From Parcubacteria group bacterium GW2011_GWA2_40_23 (GTDB lineage Bacteria; Patescibacteriota; Patescibacteriia; UBA11705; JABHMO01), in assembly GCA_000996245.1 (NCBI GenBank), contig LBYP01000004.1, forward strand, positions 10,860 through 74,859: a DNA stretch of 64,000 bases. Direction: 5' to 3'. Under the pieces are notes generated by a model. That model worked only from the letters and a program-made list of their open reading frames with translations. It did not search any database and had not been told where the DNA came from. This document shows positions 12,461 to 58,944 of the stretch, one piece after another. Within the stretch, counting starts at the first letter, position 1; each line of letters opens with the position of its first letter. The translations under genes were made by a program, and so were the position numbers.

Positions 12461-13515
12461 TTGTTTTGTAGTTTGAAGTCTGCTTCTTTCAAGGCTTCGA
12501 TAATTGGCGCGATGTTTCCATCTAAAAGAGTTGTAATATTATTCCAGTTTTCTTTAATGCGATGGTCGGTAATCCGATCTTGTGGATAATTATAAGTACG
12601 AATTTTTTCACTGCGATCGCCAGTACCGATTTGGGCGCGACGTTGGCTGCCGAGAGCATTTTCACGTTTAGTCATTTCTAGTTCGTATAAACGAGAACGC
12701 ATCACGCGCATAGCTTTTTCTTTGTTCTGCGCTTGTGAGCGTTCGTCTTGGCAAGAAACAATTGTATTAGTTGGCAAATGAGTCAATCGAACGGCTGACT
12801 TTGTTGTGTTGACACTCTGTCCACCGGCACCACCAGAACAAAAAGTATCTATTTTAATTTCATTAGGGTCAATTTTTATATCAAGTTCTTCTGCTTCTGG
12901 TAATACGGCGACTGTAATGGCTGAAGTGTGAATACGTCCTTGTTTTTCAGTTTCTGGAACGCGCTGTACTCGGTGTGTGCCGCTTTCATATTTAAGGAAG
13001 CCATAAACACCAGTGCCATTAACTTCAAAAACAACTTCCTTAAAGCCTCCGAGTTCACTTAAACTGCTAGAGACAATATGTGTTTTCCAACCTTGTCTTT
13101 CTGCAAAGCGAGAGTACATTCTGAATAGTTCAGCTGCAAAAAGCGCTGATTCGTCACCGCCGGTGCCGGCACGTATTTCCATAATGACATTCTTTTTGTC
13201 TCGTGGATCTTGTGGTGTTAGGGCAAATTTAACTTGTTTTTCTAGCTCTGCAATCTCTGGTTCTAGTATAGCTATTTCTTGCGCGGCGAGCTCATGCATT
13301 TCAGTTTCATTTTCATTGAGAAGAGTTTCTTGAGCTTCTTTCAGGTGAGCCAGTTTTTTTTCATAGTTATTAAAGAGCGCGATCATGGGTACGAGTTCAG
13401 AGTGCTCGCTAGAAAGGGTCTTTAATTTTTCTTGATTATTGATAATAGAAGAGTCCTGGAGTTGTTGCTCCAGTTCTTGAAAACGTTGTTTAAGTTTGTT
13501 GATTTGATCTTGCAT
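12457..13515 (-). CDS. prfA: peptide chain release factor 1
   Basis: 352 aa. GGQ motif ([22 protein letters not shown]) and an RF1-type tripeptide region (RVQRVPETE, PxT class rather than the SPF of RF2). Confidence 0.9.
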
Positions 13516-24079: not shown

Positions 24080-24189
24080 AATAATAATAATTGTCATGCT
24101 GAACTTGTTTCAGCATCTGCAAAGATTGTTTGCGATAAATTTTCCGGATCCTGAATCAAGTTCAGGATGACATAAGGAATCATATAAGT

Positions 24190-32178: not shown

Positions 32179-32252
32179 TCGGGGATCGTCTAATGGTAGG
32201 ACAGCAGGTTCTGGCCCTGCTAATCTTGGTTCGATTCCAGGTCCCCGAGCCA
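32179..32252 (+). tRNA. tRNA-Gln (anticodon CTG), CCA encoded
   Basis: Manual fold. Acceptor TCGGGGA/TCCCCGA. D-arm GTCT…GGAC. Anticodon stem GCAGG/CCTGC with loop TTCTGGC (CTG at 34-36). T-arm CTTGG-TTCGATT-CCAGG. Discriminator G + CCA. 74 nt. Confidence 0.8.
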
Positions 32253-45330: not shown

Positions 45331-45747
45331 TTGTATTTATGTAAAATGGCTGCAGAAAAACTTGTTCCAATTCGTAATACCAATCAGCGTCAACTGATTT
45401 TTGAATATTTAGAACACACACTCACCCACCCCACGGCTGAACAAATTTTTCAGAATATGCGCCAAGAACTTCCGCGGATCAGTTTTGGGACGGTTTATCG
45501 TAACTTAGACATTCTCGAGAAACAGGGTTTGATTTCAACTGTAATTTATTCTAAGGAACACGTTCGTTATCAGGTCGGGTCGATGAATCATTCTCATTTT
45601 GTTTGTTCTAATTGCGATAAGGTTAAAAATGTTGTTATTGATGATTTAACTGACTTAAACAATCAAGTTTCCCGTCGTCATAAAGTAATGGTGCAAAAGT
45701 ATAATTTAATTTTTTACGGACAATGCGCGAATTGTCAAAAAATGTAA
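45331..45747 (+). CDS. Fur-family metalloregulator (Fur/Zur/PerR)
   Basis: 138 aa (the likelier start is ATG 45346, MAAEK…). DNA-binding helix FGTVYRNLDILEKQGLI and C-terminal metal sites HSHFVCSNCDKV…CANCQK. Confidence 0.8.
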   Translation: MYLCKMAAEKLVPIRNTNQRQLIFEYLEHTLTHPTAEQIFQNMRQELPRISFGTVYRNLDILEKQGLISTVIYSKEHVRYQVGSMNHSHFVCSNCDKVKNVVIDDLTDLNNQVSRRHKVMVQKYNLIFYGQCANCQKM

Positions 45748-45750
45748 AAA

Positions 45751-45779
45751 GGTAGGGACAAAAATTTTTGTTCCCTACC
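45751..45779. repeat. REP-like palindrome GGTAGGGA(A)CAAAAATTTTTGTTCCCTACC (copy 1 of 3)
   Basis: Near-perfect inverted repeat between the convergent fur-like and VIT1-like genes. A partial extra half (gtccctac) follows. Confidence 0.6.
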
Positions 45780-45810
45780 TTTTTTGTCCCTACGTTTTTT
45801 TGATGGTTGT

Positions 45811-46668
45811 TTATACAGAGACACCAAGAACTTCGCGAATAATATAACCGATGATAAATGATATTAAGGCAACGCTTAAACTTAAGATTACCATTTCCCA
45901 AAATTTTCTTTTAAAGGGGACTTCTTTCACAACTGAAATATAATAGTTGAACAGAAAGATTATCAGAATGGCAAGTAGAATTGTAGCACCAAGCGCGAGA
46001 TATGGGTTTGTAAATATGAAAAATGGAAGAGTTAATATAACTGCAGTTATTATGTAAGTTATGCCCGTATAAATTCCAGATCTTAATGCAGTTCTTGATT
46101 TTTGTTCTGCTTTTTGTGAAAGATATTCCGAAGCAGCCAGAGAAAATGTTGCTGAAAATCCAGTCACTAATCCGGCCAAGGCAATTAAATTTGTTTGCTG
46201 AAAAGCAAGAGTAAAACCAGCTAAGGCGCCAGTAAGTTCAACAAGTGAATCATTAAGACTTAAAACAATGGCACCAATAAAATGTATTTTTGTTTCTTTT
46301 AGAAGGTGCATTAACTTTTTTTCATGTTCTTGTTCTTCTTTTATTATTTTTTCGATCTCAGTATTGTCCTTGGCGTATTCTTTATATAAATGTTGTGATC
46401 TGCGTTCTTCATTTTCCATGGATTTTATGGCGAATGATAAGCCTAGGATGTGAGAAAGAAAAAGAACCCAAAATGTTTCCCAGTTATTTGCCACAACCTT
46501 TGTTTTTGAGAGACTCGCCCAAAAATCATGATGTTTTTGTTCATCAGTGGCTATCTTTTCTAGTGCATCTCGACGTTCAGCAGTTTTTGCTTGACGTGCA
46601 AGTTTTAGATATAGTTTGTACCCAGTCAGTTCTTTCTTTTGAAAATTTAGAATAAGGCTTTGTTCCAT
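45811..46668 (-). CDS. ferritin-like domain + VIT1/CCC1-family iron/manganese transporter
   Basis: 285 aa. N-terminal rubrerythrin/ferritin-like helices (ELTGYKLYLKLARQAKT…EQKHHDFW…EERRSQHLYKEYA) and a C-terminal 5-TM VIT1 domain (GAIVLSLNDSLVELTGALAGF…). Confidence 0.75.
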   Translation of the reverse strand: MEQSLILNFQKKELTGYKLYLKLARQAKTAERRDALEKIATDEQKHHDFWASLSKTKVVANNWETFWVLFLSHILGLSFAIKSMENEERRSQHLYKEYAKDNTEIEKIIKEEQEHEKKLMHLLKETKIHFIGAIVLSLNDSLVELTGALAGFTLAFQQTNLIALAGLVTGFSATFSLAASEYLSQKAEQKSRTALRSGIYTGITYIITAVILTLPFFIFTNPYLALGATILLAILIIFLFNYYISVVKEVPFKRKFWEMVILSLSVALISFIIGYIIREVLGVSV

Positions 46669-46819
46669 ATTTTTGTAGAGTTTTAGGACTATATTATAAA
46701 CTTATTATAGCATTTATGGACATAAATATACACTATTTTAGCTAAATTTATTGCCAAATTGGGGATAATTCAATGGCTTGGTTTGACTTTTGGATTGTAT
46801 TGTGCTATAATAAAAGGGT

Positions 46820-47983
46820 ATGAAAATTGCTTTCATTGGTCAAAAAGGTATCCCTATGAAATTCGGTGGTGTTGAAAAACACGTCGAAAGTCTCGCTGTT
46901 GGTTTAGCTGAACGTGGGCATGATGTCTATGCTTATACCCGTCCTTGGTATACACCTAAAAAATTAAAAATTTATAAAGGCGTGCATTTGATTTCTTTGG
47001 GTTCTTTTAAGACCAAACATTTAGATGCTATTAGTCATTCTTTTAAGGCTAGCATTGATGTTTTGCGTCGTAATTTTGATGTCGTACATTATCATGGAGT
47101 TGGTCCAGCATTAATGGCTTGGATTCCGAAATTATTTAAGCCTAGCTGTAAGGTTGTCATTACCTTTCACTGTATTGATCGCTACCATCAAAAATGGGGT
47201 TTGCTCGCTCGCCTAGCGCTTTATTTGGGTGAATGGGCGGCTGTTCATTTTGCAGATGACACCATTACAGTTTCAAAAACATTACAAAATTATTGCGCTG
47301 ATACTTATAGTGCCGATACCATTTATATTCCTAATGGGGTTGATATTGTTAAAGATACTTCAGCCGAAATTATTAAAAAGAAATATGGTTTAACAAAGGG
47401 AAGTTATATTCTTTTCTTATCTCGATTAGTTAAGCATAAAGGCGCTCACTACCTTATTGAAGCCTATAATCAACTTCATACAGATAAGAAATTGGTGATT
47501 GCCGGTGGTTCTGCTTTTACAGATGATTATGTTAAATTTTTAAAAAAACAAGCACAATACAATCCTAATATAATTTTTACTGGTAATGTGGAGGGTGGTA
47601 GTCGTGAATGGAAAGAATTATATTCAAATGCTTACCTCTTTGTGCATCCATCTGAAAGTGAAGGCTTGCCGATTGTTGTTTTAGAAGCCATGAGTTTCGG
47701 TTTGCCGGTGCTGGCTTCAAATATCCGTGAGAACATGGAAGCCATTGCCGGTGGTCATGGATTTAGTTTTAAGAATAAAAATGTTAATGATTTGAAAAAG
47801 AAATTAGAGCATTTAATTAATTCTCCGAAATTAGTTAATGAGGTTGGGCTTGATGCCAAAAAATATGTTCTTGAAAACTACAGTTGGGTTGATATTGTTA
47901 ATTCAGTTGAACATGTGTATCAGGAACTTTTGAGTTTTAATGTTGTAAATAGTTTTTCGGGGAAAGCAATTCATATCAGATAA
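46820..47983 (+). CDS. GT4-family glycosyltransferase
   Basis: 387 aa. MKIAFIGQKGIPMKFGGVEKHVESLAVGLAERGHDVYAYT, then a C-terminal GT-B motif (FVHPSESEGLPIVVLEAMSFGLPVLAS). Confidence 0.8.
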   Translation: MKIAFIGQKGIPMKFGGVEKHVESLAVGLAERGHDVYAYTRPWYTPKKLKIYKGVHLISLGSFKTKHLDAISHSFKASIDVLRRNFDVVHYHGVGPALMAWIPKLFKPSCKVVITFHCIDRYHQKWGLLARLALYLGEWAAVHFADDTITVSKTLQNYCADTYSADTIYIPNGVDIVKDTSAEIIKKKYGLTKGSYILFLSRLVKHKGAHYLIEAYNQLHTDKKLVIAGGSAFTDDYVKFLKKQAQYNPNIIFTGNVEGGSREWKELYSNAYLFVHPSESEGLPIVVLEAMSFGLPVLASNIRENMEAIAGGHGFSFKNKNVNDLKKKLEHLINSPKLVNEVGLDAKKYVLENYSWVDIVNSVEHVYQELLSFNVVNSFSGKAIHIR

Positions 47984-48003
47984 AATATAAACATGTACCG
48001 CAT

Positions 48004-48035
48004 CGGTAGGGAACAAAAATTTTTGTTCCCTACCG
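48004..48035. repeat. REP-like palindrome CGGTAGGGAACAAAAATTTTTGTTCCCTACCG (copy 2 of 3)
   Basis: Perfect 16+16 palindrome. The outer arms gtaccg…cggtac extend the hairpin to about 47994-48048. Lies between convergent genes. Confidence 0.65.
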
Positions 48036-48053
48036 AACAATACGGTACATTTT

Positions 48054-48341
48054 TTATTTTATCGGTGTAATAATTTTAGGGTCTGGACTATATTTTTTGT
48101 TCTTGATCTTCCATTGTTCTACGTACTGTCCCAGACCCTTTTGGTTGAATTTGTTCTTGACCGAAGTTCTGTTTTGTGACCAGCTTAAGAGGCTTTCGAA
48201 GTTTATTTTGTAACGTCCTTGAACCACAATATATCTTAGTTCTTCGCGACTAAGGGCTCGGCGGACAGTGTGTGGATCCACTCCAAAAAGGCGGGCAGCC
48301 TCTGATACAGAGACTCTAATTGGATGTTTCTCTTGTTCCAT
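48054..48341 (-). CDS. small HTH DNA-binding protein (excisionase/MerR-like)
   Basis: 95 aa. VSEAARLFGVDPHTVRRALSREELRYIVVQGRYKI is a helix-turn-helix plus wing. A perfect palindrome TACACTAGTGTA (48360-48371) lies about 20 nt upstream of its start. Confidence 0.5.
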   Translation of the reverse strand: MEQEKHPIRVSVSEAARLFGVDPHTVRRALSREELRYIVVQGRYKINFESLLSWSQNRTSVKNKFNQKGLGQYVEQWKIKNKKYSPDPKIITPIK

Positions 48342-48546
48342 AAATAGGCGTATTTGTCTACACTAGTGTATACAATTTAGGCATTTTTAGCATACTCTCC
48401 TGGTTGTATTTCGTCAAGTGGGGAAGCAAAATAAAGTTCAATTTTAGAGGTTTTCCCCATTTACTTTTTGATAGTTATCCTGTATAGTGTGCTACATCAG
48501 CCTGAACAAATTTTGTAACAAAATTAACCCTTTAACGTCATATTAG

Positions 48547-49098
48547 ATGAGTGCAAATTCTTTGCAAGAAAAATTCCTGATATACAAGGTACGGCAAAAC
48601 AAAGATGCAGAAGCATACGGAAAACTTTATGATTGCTATATCGATCGAATTTACCGGTTTGTCTACTTTAAAGTGAGTGTGCGCGAGGACGCAGAGGACA
48701 TCACCTCAGAAGTGTTTTTGAAGGCCTGGGAGTACATAAATACTACGACCAGGAAAATAGAAAACTTTAATGCGCTTATTTACCGGGTAGCTAGAAATTC
48801 AGTCATTGATTATTATCGTAACAAAAGAATCAATGTTAGTACTGATGATGAAGATAACATGATTCAAATCCAGGATAAAGAAAATATAGTTGCAAAAATG
48901 GATGTCGTAATAGATCGCGGAAATATAGAAAAACTGTTGAGTCATTTAAAAGAAGTCTATCGCGACGTTATACTGCTAAAATACATTGAAGAATATAGTA
49001 TCAGTGAAATAGCCGACATTACCGGGAAATCAAAAGCGAATGTGCGTGTGCTCTTGCACCGAGGCATTCAAGCTCTAAAAGAAATAAGCGAAGGTTAA
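48547..49098 (+). CDS. ECF-type RNA polymerase sigma factor
   Basis: 183 aa. Region 2 (DAEDITSEVFLKAWEYI…LIYRVARNSVIDYYRNKR) and region 4 (YSISEIADITGKSKANVRVLLHRGIQALKE). Confidence 0.8.
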   Translation: MSANSLQEKFLIYKVRQNKDAEAYGKLYDCYIDRIYRFVYFKVSVREDAEDITSEVFLKAWEYINTTTRKIENFNALIYRVARNSVIDYYRNKRINVSTDDEDNMIQIQDKENIVAKMDVVIDRGNIEKLLSHLKEVYRDVILLKYIEEYSISEIADITGKSKANVRVLLHRGIQALKEISEG

Positions 49099-49102
49099 AA
49101 CA

Positions 49103-50233
49103 ATGGACAACATTGTCGAACAACTTAAGACTTTGAAAGAGATTAAACCGCGCGCAGAATGGGTAAATTCTTCACGCGAACTTTTGTTATCTCAAATTAG
49201 CGCGCAAGCTGAAAATTCCAAAACATTAGTTGGTGCCAATGTTTGGTTCTTTTTTAAATCAGCAATGCCAAGCGGGGTGCTACGTTTTGTCGCGCAGCCA
49301 ATTGGAGTTTTGAGTGTTATTCTTCTCTTTATTGCTGGAACAGGAATTTTGGGTGTAAATGCTTCAAAAACAAGTTTGCCGGGCGATTTACTTTATCCAG
49401 TAAAATTAACCTCAGAAAAAGTTTCGCTTTCTTTAATTATAAATGACAGTAAAAAAGCCGAAAAACATCTTGAATATGCAGAAGAACGAGTCAAAGAAAT
49501 GGAGGCTGTTTCAGCTCAACCATTAGAAACTCAAGACAAGAAAGATAAGATTAAGCAAGCTGTTTCTGGATTAATGGATCAAATGGAAGGCGCACAAAAT
49601 CAATTAGATAAAGTTAAAGATGCGAATGAATTGGGACAGACTGAAAATAAAGTTATTGTAGAAGTTGCTCTTGGCGTTGATAAGAAAGCAGAAGAACTAA
49701 GTCAGAAAATTGCCATTCAAAAAGAAGAATATAAAGAAGATAAAGAACTCGAAACAGCTTTTGGAGCCGCACAAGCATCAACCAATCAAACTGGCGTGAA
49801 GGCTGTAGAGGTAGTTATTAACGGCGTTGAAAATTCAAAACTAGAAATGCCGACCAAGGAAATCATGAACGTTATTCAAAAGAAAATAGAAAACACAGCG
49901 GTGACAGTTGAAGAAATGAAAAAGTCTATTGAACAGGCTGGCGCAGTTGAAAATCAGGTTGATGTGATTCTCGAAATGAAAGATAGACCAACAACCGCAA
50001 CATCAACACTTTCTGAAGCTCAGGAATTTTTAAACCAAGGCGATTTAACAGGCGCAATTGAAAGAATAAAAACAACAGTTGGAATCACTAACGAAGTTAA
50101 AGATACTGTTAGTCATGTTGAAGCGACTATTGTTTCCCCTGCTCCGGTTGTTAATAGTACTGTGGTCGTTCCAGAGCCAGCGGCTGTGGATGTTAAAGTG
50201 AATACGGATGTGATTATTAAACCTACTAATTAA
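49103..50233 (+). CDS. putative anti-sigma factor / coiled-coil membrane protein
   Basis: 376 aa. Start codon is 4 nt after the sigma-factor stop. One TM helix (VAQPIGVLSVILLFIAGTGIL) and a long Glu/Lys-rich coiled-coil ectodomain. Confidence 0.4.
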   Translation: MDNIVEQLKTLKEIKPRAEWVNSSRELLLSQISAQAENSKTLVGANVWFFFKSAMPSGVLRFVAQPIGVLSVILLFIAGTGILGVNASKTSLPGDLLYPVKLTSEKVSLSLIINDSKKAEKHLEYAEERVKEMEAVSAQPLETQDKKDKIKQAVSGLMDQMEGAQNQLDKVKDANELGQTENKVIVEVALGVDKKAEELSQKIAIQKEEYKEDKELETAFGAAQASTNQTGVKAVEVVINGVENSKLEMPTKEIMNVIQKKIENTAVTVEEMKKSIEQAGAVENQVDVILEMKDRPTTATSTLSEAQEFLNQGDLTGAIERIKTTVGITNEVKDTVSHVEATIVSPAPVVNSTVVVPEPAAVDVKVNTDVIIKPTN

Positions 50234-50401
50234 GTAATTATTATAAAATCCTAAAGAACTCTCTTTGGGTTGTGGTGGCCAGCAGGTCGAGGGGTGTCAA
50301 AACCTCGGTTGCTACATAACTAAAATTAAAAGGTGGTATGTGATTATTTCTAGCTATAGAGGAAATAATTCGTACTGCCGATAAGAAAGATTAAATTAAG
50401 T

Positions 50402-53400
50402 ATGAAAAAAGTTCTAGTCATGAGCGTGGTGTTAGCCACACTTGTATGGACAATGGGACTAGCTACATTTATTCCTGCCGTTTCAGCTGCTACTTTAACA
50501 GCTGGCGACTTGATTAAGGGTAGTGGTTCAGCTGTGTATTTTTACGCTGCTGATGGAAAACGTTATACTTTTCCAACATTGTCAACATACATGACCTGGT
50601 ATGCTGATTTTTCAACAGTGAAAACAATCACTGACAGCGAAATGGCAGCTATTTCTTTAGCTGGTAATGTAGTTGTTAGACCAGGTACAAAGTTGATCAA
50701 GATCGACACAGTTCCAAAAGTTTTTGCAGTCGAACCTAAGGGTAAATTAGTTTGGGTAGCTTCTGAAGCTGTTGCAAACACTCTTTATGGTGCTGATTGG
50801 GCAAAAAAGATTGTCACAATTCCAGATGGATTTTGGACAAACTATACAGACTCAGGTTTATCTTTAAGTGGTACTACATATCCAGAAGGACAGCTTGTTA
50901 AATGGGCTGGCTCAACAAACGTATATTATGTAACAGGCGGTAAGAAGGCTTTAGTGTCTTCAGATGCTGTTCTTGCTGCTAATATGTGGAAAGCTGGTGA
51001 TGTAGTTACTGCTCCTGCATCAATTATAATGGTAGATGGCACAGCTATTACAGCTGCAGTCGCTACTCTTGTTGATGTCTCACAGGGCGGGGGCGCTGGT
51101 TCAGTTGTTGTCCCAACGGGTGCTGGCACTTTGACAGTTGCTTTGGCTGGTGACACTCCAGCTGCATCTCCAGTTGCTGTTTCAGGTACTGCAAATTTTG
51201 TTAAATTTGGTTTAACAGCTAACGGCGCTGCCATGACTGTTTCAAAGATTCTCATCACTAAAGGTGGGTATTCAGGAACAGGTGATGTTGAAAATATCAA
51301 GATTACAGATTTAAGCGGTGTTGGTTTGACAAATTCAACAAGCTTGAACACAAACGGAACAGCTAACTTAACATTTTCTCCAGCTCTTTCATTGGCCGCT
51401 GGTGAAACAAGATATTTCTATGTTAAGTCAGGTATCGTTGCAGGTGTTAGTTCTGGTGTAACAGTCTCATTTGCTATTGCCGCTTCTTCTGATGTTACTT
51501 CATCAGCTGCAACAGTAGCTGGTAATTTCCCTGTTTTGGGAAATGCTATGAGCGTTGTTGCTGTCACTATTGGTACTGCTAAGGTTTATACTGATGGTAC
51601 TGTAACTGACACAACTCCAGATTCTGGCGATAATAACGTTATTATCAACAAATTCAGAGTCGAAGCTGGTACTACAGAAGCTATTACCATTGAATCTATT
51701 ACTTTAATGGAAGCTGGTACTGCTGGCTTATCTGATGTTAAAAATCTAGAATTATGGAGCGTTACTCAAAATAAATCTTTGGGTGAAGTCGCTGCCTATG
51801 ATTCTAATGGTAAGGTTAGCTTTACAAACTTGAACATTGTTGTTGGTAAAGGTGAAATCCATCGCTTTTCTGTTCGCGAGGACATTGTAAGCGGTGCTGG
51901 TTTAACAACCAATACTGACCTCGTAGATGGAACAGAAGTTTTAATGTCAGTTAAAGGAAATGCTTATGGTTTCTATATAACTGCTACTGATCCAAATACC
52001 TGGGGTGGTAAAGGGGCTTCTGACCAAACCATCAACACTGGTGCCTTGAGCATTTCAAAGTCAACTACAACTCCTGCTACAGGCAAGATTGCAGAAGCTG
52101 CTGATCAATTATTAGCAGTATTTGATGTTGAAGCTAAGGGTGAAGATGTAAGAGTTTCAGCGTTCAAAGTTACATTTACATTAGGTGGCACAGGTGATGG
52201 TGCTGACTTAATTTCATGTAAATTGACAGATAAAGATGGTCTTTTGGTAGCTGGCCCAGCTGATGGAACAGATGCTTTAGACTATGTTAACTTCACTGAT
52301 ACTTTTGTTGTTCCGGTTGGAATCAACAAATATTCATTGAAGTGTCGTGTCTTTGATAGCGATTCAAATGACTTCACTGGTGGTGCAACTTACCAAATGG
52401 TAGCAACAGCTGCTACTGGTATTACAGCTAAGGGTGTTTCAACTAACGATTCAATTACTGCATCTGGAACAGCTACTGCCAATGTTATGACAGTTGCTAC
52501 GGTTGCGTTAACTGCAACTACTCTTGGTACACCTGCAGCGCAAAGTGTTGCTGCTGGTACAGCTAACATGATTTGGTCTACATTTACATTAGATGCTGCT
52601 AATTCCGGCGAAAATGTTAATGTTACTAACGTAGTGTTAGAAGATACTGTTACTGTTGCTGGTAATGCAGAAGATATTGATAACGTTGAAGTTTGGTGCG
52701 ATCAATCGAGCGCATCTAGCGAACGTGGTGATATCTACGAAAAGAAGGTTTCTGATACAGAGTCTTGGGAAGGAACTGGTAATGGAGATGATCTATTATC
52801 AGTTAACTTTGTTGAAACTGTAACAGTGACTAAGAATTCATTTGTTAAGTGCGCGGTTGTTGCTGACCTAGGTTCTGGTGCTGGCGCTGGTGAAAAACAC
52901 ACAATCAGTTTAGATACTGATTCCGGTGATGTCACAGCTACTGGTGCTGACACTGGCGCAACAGCAACTGTTACTCCTACAGGAGCTGGTCAAACAATGA
53001 CTGTAGCTGCTAACGGCACATTAACAGTTTCTGTTGATGCAACTTCTCCAAAAGCTGCTATCTTCGTTTCAAGCGAAGCTAAGCAAACGGTTGCAGTCTT
53101 TAAATTGGCTGCTAACTCTGTTGAAGCATTGGATCTTGATGAATTAACTTTGACTGATGATGGTTCTGATACTGGTGTTGCTACATATTATATCTACAGT
53201 AGCAGACGCGCTGATGGCGTCGCTGTTACTGAACCTATTGCAAGCACTCCAGGTCAAGCTGCAGTTACTGCAGTTATAACTGATGGAACAGTTTCTGTTC
53301 CTGCAGGTAGCTATGTATTAATTACTGTTAAGGCTGACATCAATTACATTGATGGTACAACTATCGACAATGGTGCTACTCTTGAAGTCACTGTTGCTGA

Positions 53401-54022
53401 TGGAAGCACAGATGTTTTGACAACAGGTCTTTCTTCTGGTGCTGCAGTAGTTGGTACTGCTACAAACTATGACGCTGCTACTCATCAATTGTATGAGGCT
53501 CGTCCAGTTGTAACTAAGGATAGCAGTTCTCCAAGTGGCACTATCGGTACTGGTGCTAGCACTTTGGTTGCAGTTTTTAAGATTGACAATGCAAGTGGTA
53601 CTCAGGATATCGTGATGTCAGCTGCTAATGACGATGACATGGTATTCAACTTGTCAGGTTCTGCTACTGGAGTTTCTTGTGCTGGTGGTTGCGCTGTAGT
53701 CTTTAAGGATAAGAATGGCAATTTATTGTCAGATTCACAAACAGCTATTAACCTTGGTGGTGGCATTGCTGTTACTAATCTTAACCTAGACTTTACAGAT
53801 GGCACATTAACTGTTCCTGTTGGTGATTACGAGTTGGTCAAGGTCTATGCTAATACCACAGACTTTACAACAGCTGGTAATTCATTACAGGTTTGGTTGG
53901 ATGATGCTGCTGCAGCTAACTTCTCTTGGGGTATCGACAGCTCTGCTGGTGGTGCTCAAGTTATGGAAACTGCAGACATCTCATGGCGCGGTGATATCTA
54001 TGGTAATACACTTGGTAAATAA
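50402..54022 (+). CDS. very large secreted Thr/Ala/Gly/Val-rich repetitive surface protein (S-layer/adhesin-like)
   Basis: 1206 aa. Signal peptide MKKVLVMSVVLATLVWTMGLATFIPAVSA. N-terminal ~100-aa domain (YFYAADGKRYTFP…YGADWAKKIVTIPDGFWTNY) shared with the C-terminus of the next gene. The remainder is low-complexity beta-rich repeats. Confidence 0.6.
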   Translation: MKKVLVMSVVLATLVWTMGLATFIPAVSAATLTAGDLIKGSGSAVYFYAADGKRYTFPTLSTYMTWYADFSTVKTITDSEMAAISLAGNVVVRPGTKLIKIDTVPKVFAVEPKGKLVWVASEAVANTLYGADWAKKIVTIPDGFWTNYTDSGLSLSGTTYPEGQLVKWAGSTNVYYVTGGKKALVSSDAVLAANMWKAGDVVTAPASIIMVDGTAITAAVATLVDVSQGGGAGSVVVPTGAGTLTVALAGDTPAASPVAVSGTANFVKFGLTANGAAMTVSKILITKGGYSGTGDVENIKITDLSGVGLTNSTSLNTNGTANLTFSPALSLAAGETRYFYVKSGIVAGVSSGVTVSFAIAASSDVTSSAATVAGNFPVLGNAMSVVAVTIGTAKVYTDGTVTDTTPDSGDNNVIINKFRVEAGTTEAITIESITLMEAGTAGLSDVKNLELWSVTQNKSLGEVAAYDSNGKVSFTNLNIVVGKGEIHRFSVREDIVSGAGLTTNTDLVDGTEVLMSVKGNAYGFYITATDPNTWGGKGASDQTINTGALSISKSTTTPATGKIAEAADQLLAVFDVEAKGEDVRVSAFKVTFTLGGTGDGADLISCKLTDKDGLLVAGPADGTDALDYVNFTDTFVVPVGINKYSLKCRVFDSDSNDFTGGATYQMVATAATGITAKGVSTNDSITASGTATANVMTVATVALTATTLGTPAAQSVAAGTANMIWSTFTLDAANSGENVNVTNVVLEDTVTVAGNAEDIDNVEVWCDQSSASSERGDIYEKKVSDTESWEGTGNGDDLLSVNFVETVTVTKNSFVKCAVVADLGSGAGAGEKHTISLDTDSGDVTATGADTGATATVTPTGAGQTMTVAANGTLTVSVDATSPKAAIFVSSEAKQTVAVFKLAANSVEALDLDELTLTDDGSDTGVATYYIYSSRRADGVAVTEPIASTPGQAAVTAVITDGTVSVPAGSYVLITVKADINYIDGTTIDNGATLEVTVADGSTDVLTTGLSSGAAVVGTATNYDAATHQLYEARPVVTKDSSSPSGTIGTGASTLVAVFKIDNASGTQDIVMSAANDDDMVFNLSGSATGVSCAGGCAVVFKDKNGNLLSDSQTAINLGGGIAVTNLNLDFTDGTLTVPVGDYELVKVYANTTDFTTAGNSLQVWLDDAAAANFSWGIDSSAGGAQVMETADISWRGDIYGNTLGK

Positions 54023-54045
54023 TCAAGTTCGTATATCGTAAAAAA

Positions 54046-54080
54046 GAGTTCCCCCGTTTTAACGGGGGTCTCTTTTTTTT
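54046..54080 (+). terminator. rho-independent terminator
   Basis: gagttcccccgttttaacgggggtctc followed by T9. Confidence 0.7.
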
Positions 54081-54126
54081 CTTTAAAATCTGCTATAATA
54101 TAGAAAAGAATAAAATTTACTAGAAT

Positions 54127-55737
54127 ATGAAAAGATTAATGATTCCTTTATTATTATTTTTTGTTTTAGCAGTACCTGCTTTGGCCATGGATGATTCTTT
54201 GTTTGAAAAGAATGATGTGCCCACTGCAACGTGGTATGTCGGGCAGTTCGATAAATTAGCATTAGAGGTAACGATACCTTCTGGAAATGGCGGAGTAGAT
54301 AGTTTGAATGCACTAACCGTTGTAAATGCGGGAAATGCCTACTATGCTCATGGTTTACAAAATTTACGTTTATGGGCTGATGCAGGTTCCCCTGGTTTTC
54401 AGGGCTGGGGAGTTGACACTGATTTTGGTCCTGGGAGTTCTTCCGGTTTACAAAATTCCTGGGTTTGGAATAATTTAGATGTGAGTATCGGAGCAGAGGG
54501 AAAAAGATTTTTTGTCAGCACTGAAATGTGGACTACGGTGCCATTAACATCAGTTAACTATACAGTACAATTAAAAATTCCAGAGTTATTAGATGTTAAT
54601 AATAATGGTTTTTACGATGCGGATGACCAGGGTGTTTTCATGGAATCAAAGAACAATGGTCCGTTGACTGATTCAGTTATGAACGGGCCAAGTCAAATTA
54701 TCAGTTATGCTAATAGCGATGTTGAAGGGCCAAAAGTAATTTTGAATAATATTAGTAATAATCAGGTTTTAACTTCAAGTTCTTATGTGATTCAAGGGCA
54801 GGCACGCGATCAGGGAAAATCCTCTACTGAGTTTGTGAAGATAAAGATTTCAAAAGTTGGAGGAACGGCTGGAGAGTTGGTTTTAACTGATTCCTTGACT
54901 GATAATTATTCATCTTGGAGATACGTCTGGACTGGCATAGAAGATGGTACTTACAAGATTCAAACACAGTCGCAGGATTTCATGGGGTATTTGTCTTCAA
55001 CCACAGCTATTACAGTGGTTGTTAACAAGGGCGGCGAATTAGCTCAGCAATATTCATCAGTTTCTCTCGATAAAAACACTGCAGTTGCCAATGGAAGTGA
55101 CACTATTAATGTTAATGTCATACTTCGAAATGGAGATGATTATCCATTAAAAGACAAAACAGTTTATTTAAAAGAAGTTCGTGATAGTGGAGATGTAATT
55201 GTTAAAACATCTGGTTCTGGCGCTTTGGGTAAAGTTGTTTTTGCTTTACGCGCCTATGATCCTTCAGTCGGTACTTATAAAATAACAATGGATGATGAAC
55301 AAATAGGCCAAAACTTCACTCTTTCTTTTGTAGAAAAGAAAGCAGATGATTCTAGCGACTATACCGAGGGTCGTTGGATAAGAATAGATGGTCACCCAGC
55401 AGTATATTTTCTTGATGCTAATAATGTAAGACATGCGTATCCAACACAATCAGTTTGGGAAAGTTATTTCGGTACTGATTTTTCTAAGGTTGAAAAAGTT
55501 ACAGCGACTGAAATGGCTAATTACACCCTAGGTAAAAATGTGACTTTCAAAATTGGTACTTTAATGAAATTGCCAACAGTTACAAAAGTTTATAAGGTTG
55601 AAAGCGAAGGTGTTATCCGTTGGGTCACAAATGAATTTGTGGCGCGCGCTTATTTCGGCGTTGATTGGGCAGATAAGATAAGAACTATTCCTGATTCTTT
55701 CTTTACAGATTATAAGGAAGGCGCTGATATTTACTAA
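54127..55737 (+). CDS. secreted protein with Ig-like repeats and a C-terminal domain shared with the 50402 protein
   Basis: 536 aa. Signal peptide MKRLMIPLLLFFVLAVPALA. C-terminal …YFLDANNVRHAYPTQSVWESYFG…FGVDWADKIRTIPDSFFTDY parallels the N-terminal domain of the upstream giant protein. Confidence 0.5.
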   Translation: MKRLMIPLLLFFVLAVPALAMDDSLFEKNDVPTATWYVGQFDKLALEVTIPSGNGGVDSLNALTVVNAGNAYYAHGLQNLRLWADAGSPGFQGWGVDTDFGPGSSSGLQNSWVWNNLDVSIGAEGKRFFVSTEMWTTVPLTSVNYTVQLKIPELLDVNNNGFYDADDQGVFMESKNNGPLTDSVMNGPSQIISYANSDVEGPKVILNNISNNQVLTSSSYVIQGQARDQGKSSTEFVKIKISKVGGTAGELVLTDSLTDNYSSWRYVWTGIEDGTYKIQTQSQDFMGYLSSTTAITVVVNKGGELAQQYSSVSLDKNTAVANGSDTINVNVILRNGDDYPLKDKTVYLKEVRDSGDVIVKTSGSGALGKVVFALRAYDPSVGTYKITMDDEQIGQNFTLSFVEKKADDSSDYTEGRWIRIDGHPAVYFLDANNVRHAYPTQSVWESYFGTDFSKVEKVTATEMANYTLGKNVTFKIGTLMKLPTVTKVYKVESEGVIRWVTNEFVARAYFGVDWADKIRTIPDSFFTDYKEGADIY

Positions 55738-55767
55738 AAAGTTATCCACAGCTAAATAGAGGATGTC

Positions 55768-55804
55768 GATCTAGGTCGACATCTTTTTTTATTTTCCAAA
55801 TTCT
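55768..55804 (+). terminator. rho-independent terminator
   Basis: gatgtcga-tctagg-tcgacatc followed by T7. Confidence 0.65.
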
Positions 55805-55914
55805 CGATAGTCTGCCTTGTCGAATCAGTCAGTCAAAAACACCTCTCGGTTACAGAAAAATAATGAAACAATGTTAGTAGACATAGCTAGGTCTACTAAT
55901 TAATTAAAAAATGT

Positions 55915-56619
55915 ATGGAAAAAAAAGAAGAAGTCCTCAGCACCAATCAGTGCGGGGAAAGTAAAAAAGTTCGAACTCCGTTCACACGCCCCTTGCGTCA
56001 AAAAGGTGGAATTTATTTTTACGCTGGTTCAATTACCAATCGTAAAAATGTGTTTGTAACGTCAGAGTACATCAATCTACTGGTGAATGCGTTTAAGTAT
56101 TCAGAATTAAAGAAAGACATTAAAAATTTGGCTTATGTTGTGATGCCTAATTTTTTCTATTGGATTTTTAAGTTGAGCGAAACGCAAGATGACCCAGTAA
56201 GTGTTTTTGGTGAATTAAAGCGTGATGTGGCACGAGAAATTATCCAAAATTTAAACATGGAAATCAAAGATGCTAATTTCCAAGTGGATCCAATTATGAG
56301 TGGCAATGAACGTGTCGCCAGATCTTCTCCACAAAGAATTTTGGCAACTTTTGCAGAAGAAGCGAAGAAGTATGAAAATAAGCGCTATCGCGTTTGGACT
56401 CCTAAAACTGAATTGCGTTTAGTCGACACCCCAGAGTTATTGCAAGAGAAATTAGCGGCCATTAAAAAGGCTCCTTCAAACGATCGTTGGCAATTAGTTA
56501 AAGATTCCAAGAAATATCCTTATCTGTATTTGGCCGAAGATTTAGCAGAGTTAAGTCAAGAGGAACTGAAAGAATTTAGTCTTAATCTAGTCTCACAAGT
56601 CGCTTACACCACGTCCTAG
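55915..56619 (+). CDS. IS200/IS605-like (RAYT-like) transposase-fold protein with a degenerate HuH motif
   Basis: 234 aa. …RPLRQKGGIYFYAGSITNRKNVFVTSEYINLLVNAFKYS…NLAYVVMPNFFYWIFKL parallels the IS200/RAYT core (RpHR…YHV…R…iF…l.aYvvMPNHvHll), but YHV is YFY and HxH is FFY. Confidence 0.45.
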   Translation: MEKKEEVLSTNQCGESKKVRTPFTRPLRQKGGIYFYAGSITNRKNVFVTSEYINLLVNAFKYSELKKDIKNLAYVVMPNFFYWIFKLSETQDDPVSVFGELKRDVAREIIQNLNMEIKDANFQVDPIMSGNERVARSSPQRILATFAEEAKKYENKRYRVWTPKTELRLVDTPELLQEKLAAIKKAPSNDRWQLVKDSKKYPYLYLAEDLAELSQEELKEFSLNLVSQVAYTTS

Positions 56620-56682
56620 CTTTTGTCGATAGTTAATTCATAATGGGGTTGGTAGCAACCTATCAACCCCTTTCAAGGAGCT

Positions 56683-58824
56683 ATGCAAAGAAGATTCGGA
56701 GTTTTAGTAGTTTGTCTTATGTTAATAATGTCATGTATGAATGCACAAGAAACCATAGCGGCCGTAGTGGATAATAATATTTCCGGCAGTAACGTTAAAC
56801 AATATTATTTCTTTGATTGCGATAAGACGGATTGTCAGGTTTTGTTTAAAGAAATCAGTGAGGACGCGACTGTTGTTCCAGTCGAGGAACCAGCAGAGCT
56901 TCCGGTTATTGGAAGCTCGGACTCAGGAGTTGTCGATGCTGAAACTGTGGATGTCCCAGAAATAGTTATAGAAGTTGTCGACGACACAAACCAAGTTGAA
57001 GACTCTTCCGTGACCGAAGTAACTGATCAAGTCGAAACGTCTGATATTGTCGCACCATTAACAACATATTCTTTCCAATCTGTACGTATAAACGAAGTTG
57101 TCTCTGCCGCTGAAACAGGAGAAAAAGAATGGGTTGAATTGTATAATCCAACAACAGAAACGATTGATCTTCAAAATTGGATAATCGAAGAAGGTTCTGG
57201 CACAAAAACGATTCTGACTGGTCAAATTGAAGCAAAAGGTTATCTTGTGTTCGAAACTAAGAACCTAAACAACAGCGGCGATTTGGTTCTTCTCAAAGAC
57301 GCTACGGGCAAGGTAATTGATCAAGTCGTTTACGGCGATTGGGACGATGGGGATAAGTCTGATAACTGGCCAGCTAGTGACAAAGGCGAAGCCTTATCAT
57401 TATATGAAGGGGAATACGTGGTTAACCCTCAAACAACGCAAGGAGAAATTAATATTTATGACAGATTAGAAACAGTTGTTGAAACTCAAACTGAGACAAC
57501 AGTGCAAACAGAAGTTGAGGTTAGTCCCCAACCGGTCGAAGTGGTTGTGCCAGAAGTAGTGGAGACCGCCGGCGCCGCGACGACTGAACCTTCAGCATCA
57601 ACTATCGCCTACCAGTACTCGGACGTTGTCAGGATCAATGAGCTCCTTCCGGCGCCGGCCACCGGTAGCGAAGAATGGATAGAACTCTACAATTCCGGTT
57701 CAACGGATGTCGACCTTCGCGGTTGGTCCATTGATGACGCCGAAGGTGGCAGTACTCCGTATATTATTTCAGAATCTTTGATTATCAGGGCTCAAGGTTA
57801 TTTAGTTCTGCCTCAATTAAAAACGAAGGTTCAACTTAATAATTCGTCAGATGAAGTTCGGCTAATAGATCCAGACCAAAAAGTTATTGATTCAGTTTCT
57901 TACGCAGCAACGCATTCGAATGTTAGTTGGTCAAAGATTGATACTAATTGGGTCGAAACAGAGCTTTTAACGCCGGAATTGGTGAATGCTTTAGCGGAGG
58001 TTGATCCATTAGTGATAAGCTCGTCCATCGAAGAAACAGAAACCTTGACTGCAGATCCGGCATTTCAAGGTCTTGGAATTAGTGAGGCCGCGGCCTTGGA
58101 CTTAAGAACTCAGGTAATGGTCGAGGCCGCCGTGACAGTTCTCCCGGGAACTTTCAGTAAAAATTTAATTTATGTTCAGGATGAAACTGGTGGTATACAA
58201 GTTTATTTTGATGCAGCCACTTGGCCACAACTTTCACTCGGACAAGAAGTTGTAATTGCTGGTACAATTTCGCAAAGTTTGGGTGAAAAAAGAATTTTGA
58301 TTAAGAATGCGACTGATGTATTTGTCAAAGAAACGACTCGTGCAGTTCTGCCATTCAAAATAAATACAGAGATGTTGAGTCCCACACTAGTCGGATCTTT
58401 GGTTGAGCTGGAAGCAACTTTGTTTAAAAAAGATGGGAGTACTTGGTTTATGACTGATTCTGTTGGCGGAGTGAAAGTGTATTTGAAAAAAGGTTCTCAA
58501 ATCCCAAGTACCTTATTCAATGTTAATGACAAACTCAAAATCACGGGTGTTCTCGTTCAAAATAATGGAGAATTCATGATTCAACCACGTAATGATCAGG
58601 ATATTGTTAATCTTTCATTGACTGAAGATGGTGGAGCGGGCGCAAGCATTGAAACACAAGAAACAATCCCTCCTGGTTCAACACAAAAGAATGTACTCGT
58701 AGGTTTGGGTGTAGGTGCTGGTGTTCTGGGCGCAATTAATTTGTTCTTAGCTCTAAAAAAATATTTACCCAAGCGTAAAATTCGGGGTTATTGGTATCGT
58801 TTGAAAACTAGCCTTCAGGGTTAA
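56683..58824 (+). CDS. surface protein with two lamin-tail domains (LTD) and a C-terminal membrane anchor
   Basis: 713 aa. Signal peptide. Two LTD units (VRINEVVSAAETGEKEWVELYNPTTETIDLQNWIIEEGSG…; VRINELLPAPATGSEEWIELYNSGSTDVDLRGWSIDDAEGG…). OB-fold-like C-terminal region. TM helix near the C-terminus (VLVGLGVGAGVLGAINLFLAL). AAGGAG RBS present. Confidence 0.6.
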   Translation: MQRRFGVLVVCLMLIMSCMNAQETIAAVVDNNISGSNVKQYYFFDCDKTDCQVLFKEISEDATVVPVEEPAELPVIGSSDSGVVDAETVDVPEIVIEVVDDTNQVEDSSVTEVTDQVETSDIVAPLTTYSFQSVRINEVVSAAETGEKEWVELYNPTTETIDLQNWIIEEGSGTKTILTGQIEAKGYLVFETKNLNNSGDLVLLKDATGKVIDQVVYGDWDDGDKSDNWPASDKGEALSLYEGEYVVNPQTTQGEINIYDRLETVVETQTETTVQTEVEVSPQPVEVVVPEVVETAGAATTEPSASTIAYQYSDVVRINELLPAPATGSEEWIELYNSGSTDVDLRGWSIDDAEGGSTPYIISESLIIRAQGYLVLPQLKTKVQLNNSSDEVRLIDPDQKVIDSVSYAATHSNVSWSKIDTNWVETELLTPELVNALAEVDPLVISSSIEETETLTADPAFQGLGISEAAALDLRTQVMVEAAVTVLPGTFSKNLIYVQDETGGIQVYFDAATWPQLSLGQEVVIAGTISQSLGEKRILIKNATDVFVKETTRAVLPFKINTEMLSPTLVGSLVELEATLFKKDGSTWFMTDSVGGVKVYLKKGSQIPSTLFNVNDKLKITGVLVQNNGEFMIQPRNDQDIVNLSLTEDGGAGASIETQETIPPGSTQKNVLVGLGVGAGVLGAINLFLALKKYLPKRKIRGYWYRLKTSLQG

Positions 58825-58864
58825 CGCTTCAGCTAAGAAAAAATATACGGTTAATGCATTTGTG

Positions 58865-58904
58865 TCGGTCGTAGGGAACAAAATTTTTTGTTCCCTACGA
58901 CCGA
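58865..58904. repeat. REP-like palindrome TCGGTCGTAGGGAACAAAATTTTTTGTTCCCTACGACCGA (copy 3 of 3)
   Basis: Perfect 20+20 palindrome. The outer inverted arms aaaatatacgg…ccgtatatttt extend it to about 58841-58925. Confidence 0.65.
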
Positions 58905-58944
58905 CCGATGCCCGTATATTTTTTATATCGCTTGTGTATAAACT

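Follow-up and report, generated by a model that had tools for sequence, protein, structure and literature searches.

REP-associated tyrosine transposases (RAYTs, also TnpA-REP) of subclass 2.4 of TnpA-Y1 (Bertels Group 4) are associated with repetitive extragenic palindromes (REPs) that display a 'double foot', namely a 5' GT[AG]G and a 3' C[TC]AC (Quentin et al., 2018, PMC6006769). The REPs of this subclass are patchily distributed and are also found in frame within the tnpA-REP genes, between the HuH motif and the catalytic Tyr (Y), and the signature motifs of the proteins are NH[IFV]H, WQ and YIxNNP (PMC6006769). A run of three G-C pairs at the stem base was described for the canonical long REPs of subclass 2.4, and it was considered that the double foot could derive from a REP dimer via a central deletion (Quentin et al., PMC6006769). 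For TnpA-REP of E. coli, GTAG recognition was assigned to residues W94, Q95, E100, H101 and R104 (Quentin, PMC6006769). GTAG-tagged REPs sit downstream of open reading frames (ORFs), between convergent or unidirectional genes, while the intragenic ones are concentrated in replication and repair genes, including uvrA/B/C (Di Nocera, De Gregorio and Rocco, 2013, PMC3733652). Here, three palindromes and a RAYT-like gene were analysed in a stretch of 64,000 nucleotides (the window, numbered from its first letter) of contig LBYP01000004.1 from Parcubacteria group bacterium GW2011_GWA2_40_23.

The three palindromes are most probably double-foot GTAG REPs hosted by terminators and mobilised by a RAYT of subclass 2.4, the dead RAYT encoded nearby being exapted and unrelated to them. 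Sequence comparison clearly assigned the palindromes to a widespread REP family and revealed gain and loss of REPs, with respect to relatives, at conserved terminators. They are further members of an already described class and not a new class.

Three palindromes of the window and their setting

The following features were defined, none of the sites or hairpins being assigned to a strand.

45746..45799, no strand: REP site 1, composed of an A-run, left arm GTAGGGACAAAAA (45752-64), right arm TTTTGTTCCCTAC (45766-78), duplicated right arm TTTTTGTCCCTAC (45781-93) and a T-run; between the convergent genes of FUR (stop 45745-47) and VIT1/rubrerythrin (stop 45811)
48003..48036, no strand: REP site 2, perfect 34-nt palindrome, TCGGTAGGGAACAAAAA followed by TTTTTGTTCCCTACCGA; between the convergent genes of a GT4 glycosyltransferase (stop 47981-83) and HTH_17 (stop 48054-56)
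58864..58905, no strand: REP site 3, arms GTCGGTCGTAGGGAACAAAA and TTTTGTTCCCTACGACCGAC with a 2-nt centre; between unidirectional genes, with the gene of an LTD/DUF5689 protein upstream (stop 58822-24)
47993..48050, no strand: candidate host terminator hairpin of site 2, stem ATGTACCG (47993-48000) and CGGTACAT (48043-48050) followed by a T-run, with the REP in the loop
58838..58924, no strand: candidate host terminator hairpin of site 3, stem AAAAAATATACGG (58838-50) and CCGTATATTTTTT (58912-24), 14 nt past the LTD stop

As the original prediction for this window had proposed, the core GTAGGGAACAAAA/TTTTGTTCCCTAC is shared by the three intergenic palindromes; this sharing is well beyond chance. 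Five exact half-sites of GTAGGGAACAAAA are present in the window, at 45766-78 (-), 48006-18 (+), 48021-33 (-), 58871-83 (+) and 58886-98 (-). With up to two mismatches 11 matches were obtained, against 2.2 expected and a peak of 6 in 100 shuffles. Apart from the extra arm at site 1, no solitary half-site was found in the window. The hexamer GTAGGG alone is not enriched there either (9 observed, 12.6 expected), and the window holds no broader 'GTAGGG-head' family. Rfam at gathering thresholds recognised only one tRNA gene (32179-32249) in the whole window.

A perfect or near-perfect palindrome core had been announced for all three sites. The pairing of sites 2 and 3 is perfect, with a double-foot core of 28 nt at 48006-48033 in site 2 and perfect arms of 20 nt each (58864-83 and 58886-905) in site 3. 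Site 1 is an imperfect palindrome, in which the left arm GTAGGGACAAAAA is a 1-nt deletion variant. The second right arm of site 1 (45781-93), absent from the original prediction, is exactly complementary to the left arm. The 5' GTAG foot is present at all three sites (45752, 48006 and 58871), in agreement with GT[AG]G of subclass 2.4, and the second foot, CTAC, ends at 45778 (also 45793), 48033 and 58898, in agreement with C[TC]AC. Perfect stems of 14 and 13 pairs, with a loop of 0-2 nt when counted on DNA and of 4 nt when folded as RNA, fall within the stem range of 7-20 nt. The stem base GTAGGGAAC offers three basal G-C pairs if the foot's final G is included and two otherwise, three such pairs being stated for the canonical long REPs of subclass 2.4. 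The half-site is not itself palindromic and each site is a single hairpin, so that the sites are not REPINs. The RNA folds of sites 1, 2 and 3 reached -22, -34.3 and -52.2 kcal/mol, with z values from -5 (site 1) to -12 (site 3); all three hairpins are thus predicted to be very stable.

The start of each site lies 0-40 nt from a stop codon, and the extragenic location 3' of ORFs, between convergent or unidirectional genes, is that of REPs. The outer arms differ from site to site, and sites 2 and 3 have an extra outer stem, with an A-run and a T-run at its borders. A simple terminator scan picked up sites 1 and 2. The predicted differences in outer arms and the placement 3' of genes in terminator-like hairpins were both borne out, the latter by the distance to the stops, the A- and T-runs and the stable folds.

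Relatives with 76-90% identical orthologues have their gene order in common with the window (loci of other genomes are designated by L and a number). At the position of site 2, the locus L114 (90% amino acid identity) has kept the stem ATGTACCG/CGGGACAT and the T-run without any REP. Its loop counts 9 nt against 42 nt in the window, and the fold reaches -11.6 against -34.3 kcal/mol. At the position of site 3, another, CTAC-footed palindrome (GGGGACCCCGCATGCGGGGTCCCTAC) is found in L114 together with two small hairpins, and plain terminators are found in the more distant L117 and L118. Since the orthologous terminators of relatives differ in this way, the REPs are best seen as cargo in the loops of pre-existing terminators, turning over between lineages. 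The palindromes of the window are uneroded, and dS to the closest relative is already about 0.9, so that the gain of the REPs can be called recent only in a relative sense.

Other foot-bearing hairpins were observed in the same kind of setting. In L114 (12898-13074, orthologous to site 3) GGGGACCCCGCATGCGGGGTCCCTAC and the small hairpins lie inside an outer stem with A-run and T-run, and so do the foot-bearing GTAGGGATAGGTCG...CGACCTGTCCCTAT and small hairpins of L117 (1963-2077, orthologous to site 2). From these loci, terminator loops appear to be a favoured landing place for several REP types.

The 28-mer in other genomes and in RAYT genes

A collection of species-representative genomes was scanned with the inner 20 specified bases of the element (22-nt palindrome), GGGAACAAAA-N-TTTTGTTCCC. 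This pattern was found in at least 107 stretches. Among the matches listed, about 85% are flanked by GTA and TAC, which gives an identical 28-mer, GTAGGGAACAAAAATTTTTGTTCCCTAC, and over 70 loci from other genomes share the 28-mer of site 2 exactly. The hosts listed include Roizman-, Moran-, Falkow-, Uhr-, Kuenen-, Peri- and Peregrinibacteria, Parcubacteria, Saccharibacteria, Calditrichaeota CLD3 and a Desulfobacterales chromosome, with at least nine loci carrying the 28-mer in one metagenome-assembled genome (MAG) of Calditrichaeota. The remaining matches listed, with other flanks and loops of 3-4 nt, are ordinary terminators of unrelated bacteria. The flanks extend the palindrome by at least 3 bp at 24 of the 71 distinct sites listed (2.6 expected) and by at least 7 bp at 16 of them, so that many copies are nested in longer hairpins like the sites of the window.

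An adapter or assembly artefact was considered for this cross-phylum 28-mer and rejected, because the copies come from different studies and assemblers, lie mid-contig and in frame, and are accompanied by degenerate orthologous copies. A scan of viral contigs for the 28-mer gave no match, and hence no sign of a phage vector. Neither the exact core sequence nor the REP-coded peptides were found in the searchable literature.

Many copies are translated. Among the matches listed, 28 of the 74 exact copies lie in frame within long ORFs, where they encode VGNKNFCSL(Q/R/H) or (G/C)REQKFLFPT. According to Pfam, the host proteins are UvrA, UvrC (several), PriA, YchF, a Mur ligase and Ser/Thr kinases. 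A second palindrome type, coding for VETQNFASLQ, is present in the same uvrC and kinase genes. The uvrC genes of three related Moranbacteria-type MAGs (L068, L026 and L044) contain up to three REP-coded segments per gene, with GREQKFLFPT at two positions and VETQNFASLQ or VGTQNFASLE at the third. Orthologues of uvrC that are about 80% identical differ in the presence, absence or degenerate form (SRDEKFQIT) of these segments, and the three genes would represent a good system for dating the gain and decay of REPs inside genes.

The element is also embedded in RAYT genes. The REP-bearing ORF of L030 is an intact RAYT, with MPNHIHGII as HuH motif and REYIISNP around the Tyr. A phmmer search with this protein identified seven intact RAYT genes among the REP loci listed, and in all seven the REP or a degenerate copy lies at the same position, just past the HuH strand. 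In each of two assemblies the RAYT locus is accompanied by another locus that has the REP (L016 with L052, L030 with L026). As a control for bias, the RAYT from which the REP segment had been deleted was used as query in a protein database at E<=1e-10, which yielded 3088 homologues. Among the best 120 of these, a recognisable REP-coded peptide occupies that position in 113, and the other seven show variants. The peptides of the best 120 comprise 58 GNKNFCS-like, 31 ETQNFAS-like and 11 GNAHVRS-like forms, besides others, and often occur as tandem partial copies. The exact VGNKNFCSL was present in 22 of the best 120, in which the surrounding catalytic core is only 63% identical on average. The motifs NHIH, WQ and YIxNNP of the REP-carrying RAYTs match those given for subclass 2.4 in Table 1 of Quentin. 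In genomes other than that of the window, the REP is thus located inside tnpA-REP genes of subclass 2.4. The GTAG foot and the position in terminator-like hairpins 3' of genes confirmed the prediction of REP-type elements, and the REP inside subclass-2.4 genes supported its claim that the palindrome family is tied to RAYT transposases.

Two further observations concern related repeats. In L080, L012, L050, L040, L022 and L094, as well as at 45781-45793 of the window, one REP arm is tandemly duplicated beside a complete palindrome; in one example TGTAGGGAACAAT is present three times over, and such duplications recur at the protein level in RAYTs, as VGNNIKNVGNNIKNVGNNNYCSL and similar peptides. 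In the intergenic region 24080-24189 of the window, between two genes of the + strand, there are two related hairpins, ATGCTGAAC..GTTTCAGCAT and GGATCCTGAATCAAGTTCAGGAT. Units of the form GGATCCTGAAAC..GTTCAGG, like these hairpins, directly adjoin GTAG REPs in a Parcubacteria MAG (L008, L017, L028, L085 and L106), and judging from this resemblance they may represent a second small palindromic repeat family in genomes of the candidate phyla radiation (CPR).

The RAYT-fold protein encoded at 55915-56619

55915..56619, + strand: gene of a predicted dead RAYT-fold protein of 234 aa (NCBIfam, PDB 4ER8, Foldseek, alignment and synteny)

An IS200/RAYT fold had been predicted for the product of this ORF. 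Pfam, including Y1_Tnp, gave no match to it even at E<=10. The NCBIfam model REP_Tyr_transpos (NF047646) matched residues 25-113, that is the N-terminal half, with E=5.7e-15 and 55.5 bits, which is below its cutoff of 80. A sequence match to PDB 4ER8 was obtained with E=7e-4, in which H-M-H is aligned to F-F-Y. An AlphaFold2 model based on 21 family members (pLDDT 85, pTM 0.80) was submitted to Foldseek, with 4er8_A as best match (E=4.7e-8), followed by ISDra2, IS608 and IS200 TnpA. The model thus agrees with the predicted fold, and a Y1 HuH/RAYT fold is assigned to the protein.

The loss of catalytic residues goes further than had been predicted. Full-length BLASTP against the intact RAYT of L122 (E=2e-13) aligned HIH to FFY and YIHNNP to AIKKAP, so that both His of the HuH motif, the catalytic Tyr (Ala) and the Asn ligand (Ala) are replaced. 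Both His are kept by no sequence of the 21-sequence family alignment. The reading YFY, which had also been taken as degenerate, is no sign of decay, because active RAYTs likewise read Y-F-x at this place. At the positions of the five GTAG-recognition residues of E. coli the protein reads W-T....L-R..D in the alignment, with one of five kept, and the Trp is the only one of the five that is invariant in the dead family. By alignment, the 234-aa protein is predicted to be catalytically dead. The gene is not flanked by REPs of its own, as a REPtron is: the nearest REPs lie 2.2 kb downstream and 7.9 kb upstream with genes between, and its immediate flanks contain unrelated hairpins. The two hairpins upstream, at 55758-55787 (GATGTCGATCTAGGTCGACATC, then a T-run) and 55874-55899 (TTAGTAGACATAGCTAGGTCTACTAA), have the centre CTAGGTC in common, and the first one is probably the terminator of the Big_1 gene.

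The ORF is identical on 18 public contigs, including GCA_000993485.1, and its homologues are all named Patescibacteria or Falkowbacteria, which places the window in a CPR bacterium; the names hint at a Falkowbacteria-like affiliation. Comparison with orthologues gave a dN/dS of 0.04-0.13, the mark of strong purifying selection. An exhaustive profile search for the dead family returned 17 clusters at E<=1e-30 and also revealed a gradient towards active RAYTs of the type YIHNNP...DYxYSS. Intermediates combine the insertion of the family with a 'HuH-W' motif and an intact Tyr, and one family member has lost the HuH motif and apparently kept the Tyr. This gradient and its intermediates place the dead family next to subclass 2.6 and not 2.4. 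At the C-terminus, DYxYSS has become YPYLY in the protein of the window. The MAG with the locus tag prefix KKC32 contains both a member of the dead family and a GNKNFCS-type RAYT.

The gene belongs to a cluster with the order ECF-type sigma factor, DUF5667, a protein of 1200-1400 aa, (TPR), a Big_1 protein of about 530 aa, dead RAYT and LTD, continued by proteins of about 960, 515 and 400 aa, then PrgI, TraC-like and VirB4-like proteins. All contigs examined that were of sufficient length showed this order, at identities as low as 39-41%; the contigs of the active intermediates P0190 and P0195 are too short to judge synteny. The low dN/dS and the fixed synteny suggest that the gene is maintained for a function and thus exapted rather than decaying. 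A Bacteroidetes SusC/SusD locus was considered and rejected, as the 1206- and 536-aa proteins are without such domains and the host belongs to Patescibacteria.

A survey of type IV secretion systems (T4SS) in Patescibacteria reported that most clusters are without relaxase and left their function as an open question (PMC12102498); the words 'transposase' and 'HUH' are absent from its text. The 234-aa protein could tentatively be regarded as an accessory of such a relaxase-less T4SS-like apparatus that binds single-stranded DNA or hairpins, for example in the handling of imported or exported DNA. Although rather unlikely, this role is kept in consideration because the modelled HuH fold is intact, selection is strong, the cluster slot is the same throughout, and active and half-degenerate intermediates exist. 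An exapted HuH-fold protein in relaxase-poor T4SS clusters thus offers a concrete candidate for study. A RAYT that is catalytically dead yet strongly conserved in a CPR T4SS-associated cluster is the less expected and more novel of the two findings.

Several features of related clusters were also observed. Two genes downstream of the dead RAYT, L122 (a Falkowbacteria-type relative) encodes an intact RAYT at 12661-13209 (HIH, YIHNNP; NCBIfam 83.6 bits, which passes the cutoff). It is followed at 13214-13417 by two tandem units of 104 bp, 99% identical, in each of which two hairpins but no GTAG foot are present. The otherwise conserved cluster of relatives is interrupted at variable positions by small genes of GIY-YIG and 23S_rRNA_IVP (four-helix-bundle) proteins (L123 9495-9791, L122 17777-18142, L125 7627-8067). 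An LTD protein (56683-58824) follows the dead RAYT in the window, and in L030 (1355-3961) an LTD-domain surface protein lies directly upstream of the subclass-2.4 RAYT, both in one stop-to-stop ORF. LTD proteins seemed frequent in these CPR loci, by an uncounted impression, so that this adjacency may be a coincidence.

Proposed explanation, alternatives and known systems

The evidence is most readily explained if subclass-2.4 enzymes of the RAYT/TnpA-REP tyrosine (HuH) type (Bertels Group 4) have the double-foot REPs (5' GTAG, 3' CTAC) as their DNA partners. The REPs would sit at the apex or in the loop of hairpins resembling intrinsic terminators, immediately past genes, where they would probably be transcribed within the 3' end and lengthen the stem of the terminator or stabiliser. 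Mobilisation would take place on single-stranded DNA by a cognate RAYT that is presumably encoded outside the window or was once encoded in the lineage. The 234-aa protein, for its part, would have been exapted as a fixed part of the T4SS-associated cluster of Patescibacteria.

A number of points weigh against this explanation. Only three copies are present in 64 kb, all inside 13 kb, and a search of the window with a subclass-2.4 RAYT hidden Markov model (HMM) gave no match. The co-occurrence of RAYT and REP is partly circular, because the RAYT genes hold the REP and were retrieved via the REP. The terminator function of the sites is judged from position, stems and T-runs only. A clean pair of empty and filled sites at the nucleotide level was not obtained between the window and its relatives, the loops being too diverged beyond site 2, and the comparison of UvrC paralogues, in which the REPs occupy variable linkers, was ambiguous on the insertion junction. 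For the 71 distinct sites listed, no direct-repeat signal indicative of a target-site duplication clearly exceeded the control for A/T-rich flanks. As there is neither a clean empty site nor a duplication, the insertion chemistry is taken from the literature, and one part of that literature (PMC8266576) calls REP dissemination poorly understood.

The original prediction had presented the REPs as relics of a former REP/RAYT system, with the ancestor of the now dead protein encoded at 55915-56619 as transposase. The ORF does have a RAYT fold without the catalytic residues, it is located 2.2 kb from site 3, and in L122 an intact RAYT accompanies the dead one. The dead family, however, comes from a subclass-2.6-like lineage with the YIHNNP...DYxYSS tail, and subclass 2.6 is tied to atypical structures and not to GTAG REPs, the type found here being that of subclass 2.4. 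Of the guide residues W, Q, E, H and R only W survives. The low dN/dS and a synteny fixed to about 40% identity point to a gene kept for function, and the REPs, perfect palindromes, are missing where relatives have the orthologous terminators. Moreover, no double-foot REP was found in the 16-21-kb loci of six relatives with the dead RAYT, and the HMM of the dead family found no member in any of the approximately 107 REP loci listed. A relic status of the REPs is thus very improbable. From these comparisons it is concluded that the dead RAYT most probably neither mobilises the REPs of the window nor was their former transposase, and neither the predicted link to the nearby gene nor the relic status is supported. 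It is also quite improbable that the palindromes are host regulatory or binding sites (operators or RNA hairpins, possibly bound by the dead RAYT) kept by selection and not by transposition. The extreme conservation across phyla while the surrounding proteins diverge, together with the position at gene 3' ends, would suit such sites, and the RAYT-fold protein nearby could, from its model, still bind hairpins. Conservation is nevertheless missing at orthologous positions in relatives, the relatives with the dead RAYT have no such sites nearby, and copies lie in frame inside unrelated genes and embedded in RAYT genes.

Ordinary intrinsic terminators with similar stems, or a minimal miniature inverted-repeat transposable element (MITE) with terminal inverted repeats (GGGAAC..., TA duplication at GTAC) moved by a DDE transposase, are highly improbable explanations. 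The terminator-like setting with A- and T-runs would be expected of the former, terminators in which GGGAACAAAA occurs by chance, with different flanks and loops, do exist in a few unrelated genomes, and the flanks GTA...TAC would suit a TA duplication at GTAC. Against this stand the five exact 13-mers in the window, where 2.2 are expected even at up to two mismatches, and the identical 28-mer in more than 70 of the loci listed. The direct-repeat signal of the 71 sites is no greater than A/T-rich flanks give, which is not the picture of such a MITE, and the foot, GTAG, corresponds to the canonical guide of REPs. The genes to which the element is linked are those of RAYTs, and a DDE transposase was not noticed, without a systematic search for one. 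Paired inverted copies in terminators resemble the pairs formed by DNA uptake sequences (DUS). A DUS-like motif, as in Neisseria, serving DNA import by competence or the T4SS would gain from the adjacent T4SS cluster, which has been proposed to import DNA. It is scarcely credible in view of the low density of three per 64 kb, the solitary half-sites missing from the window save for the extra arm at site 1, the occurrence of the same sequence in very different phyla and its presence in RAYT genes.

With double-foot REPs of subclass 2.4 as the preferred explanation, this GTAG class is extended into Patescibacteria. An exact 28-mer is common to many uncultivated phyla, in terminators as well as in essential genes. 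Its conservation far exceeds that of the transposase which carries it. The peptides VGNKNFCSL, GREQKFLFPT and VETQNFASLQ in CPR proteins can be annotated as REP-coded, and the 28-mer is also useful for the study of REP spread.

Compared with known systems, the elements share with the REP/BIME and TnpA-REP of E. coli (4ER8; Ton-Hoang, 2012; Messing, 2012) the hairpin with its GTAG guide, and the 234-aa protein shares the fold of the monomeric Y1 HuH enzyme. The E. coli REPs differ in being imperfect, bulged and single-footed, and their enzyme possesses the HuH motif, Tyr, Asn and Q/E/H/R guide residues which the protein of the window has lost. REPINs (Bertels and Rainey, 2011) are likewise non-autonomous and associated with single-copy RAYTs, but consist of two inverted REPs and a spacer, whereas the unit of the window is a single hairpin. 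The 234-aa protein finds its closest active relatives in RAYT subclass 2.6 (Bertels Group 5), with NH[LIV]H, WQ, YIH[QN]NP, the SS tail and an insertion between the core halves. It differs from them by the replacement of all catalytic residues, the change of DYxYSS to YPYLY and its fixation in a T4SS-associated cluster. Rickettsia palindromic elements resemble the present ones as palindromic repeats tolerated in frame in protein-coding genes. They are 100-150 bp long and include CGTC-tagged types, unlike the GTAG-tagged elements of 28 bp described here. The GTAG REPs/SMAG (PMC3733652) are classically G+C-rich and tagged at one end only, whereas the elements of the window are tagged on both strands; the GTAG tag, the placement downstream of ORFs and the in-frame copies in repair and replication genes are common to both. 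The double-foot REPs of Quentin are mainly those of Cyanobacteria and Bacteroidetes, in contrast to the Patescibacteria elements with their very A/T-rich stem and no cognate RAYT in the window; the feet GT[AG]G/C[TC]AC, the long and perfectly paired stem and the patchy, horizontally spread distribution are the same in both, and G-C pairs, two or three depending on whether the foot is included, lie at the base of the present stem.

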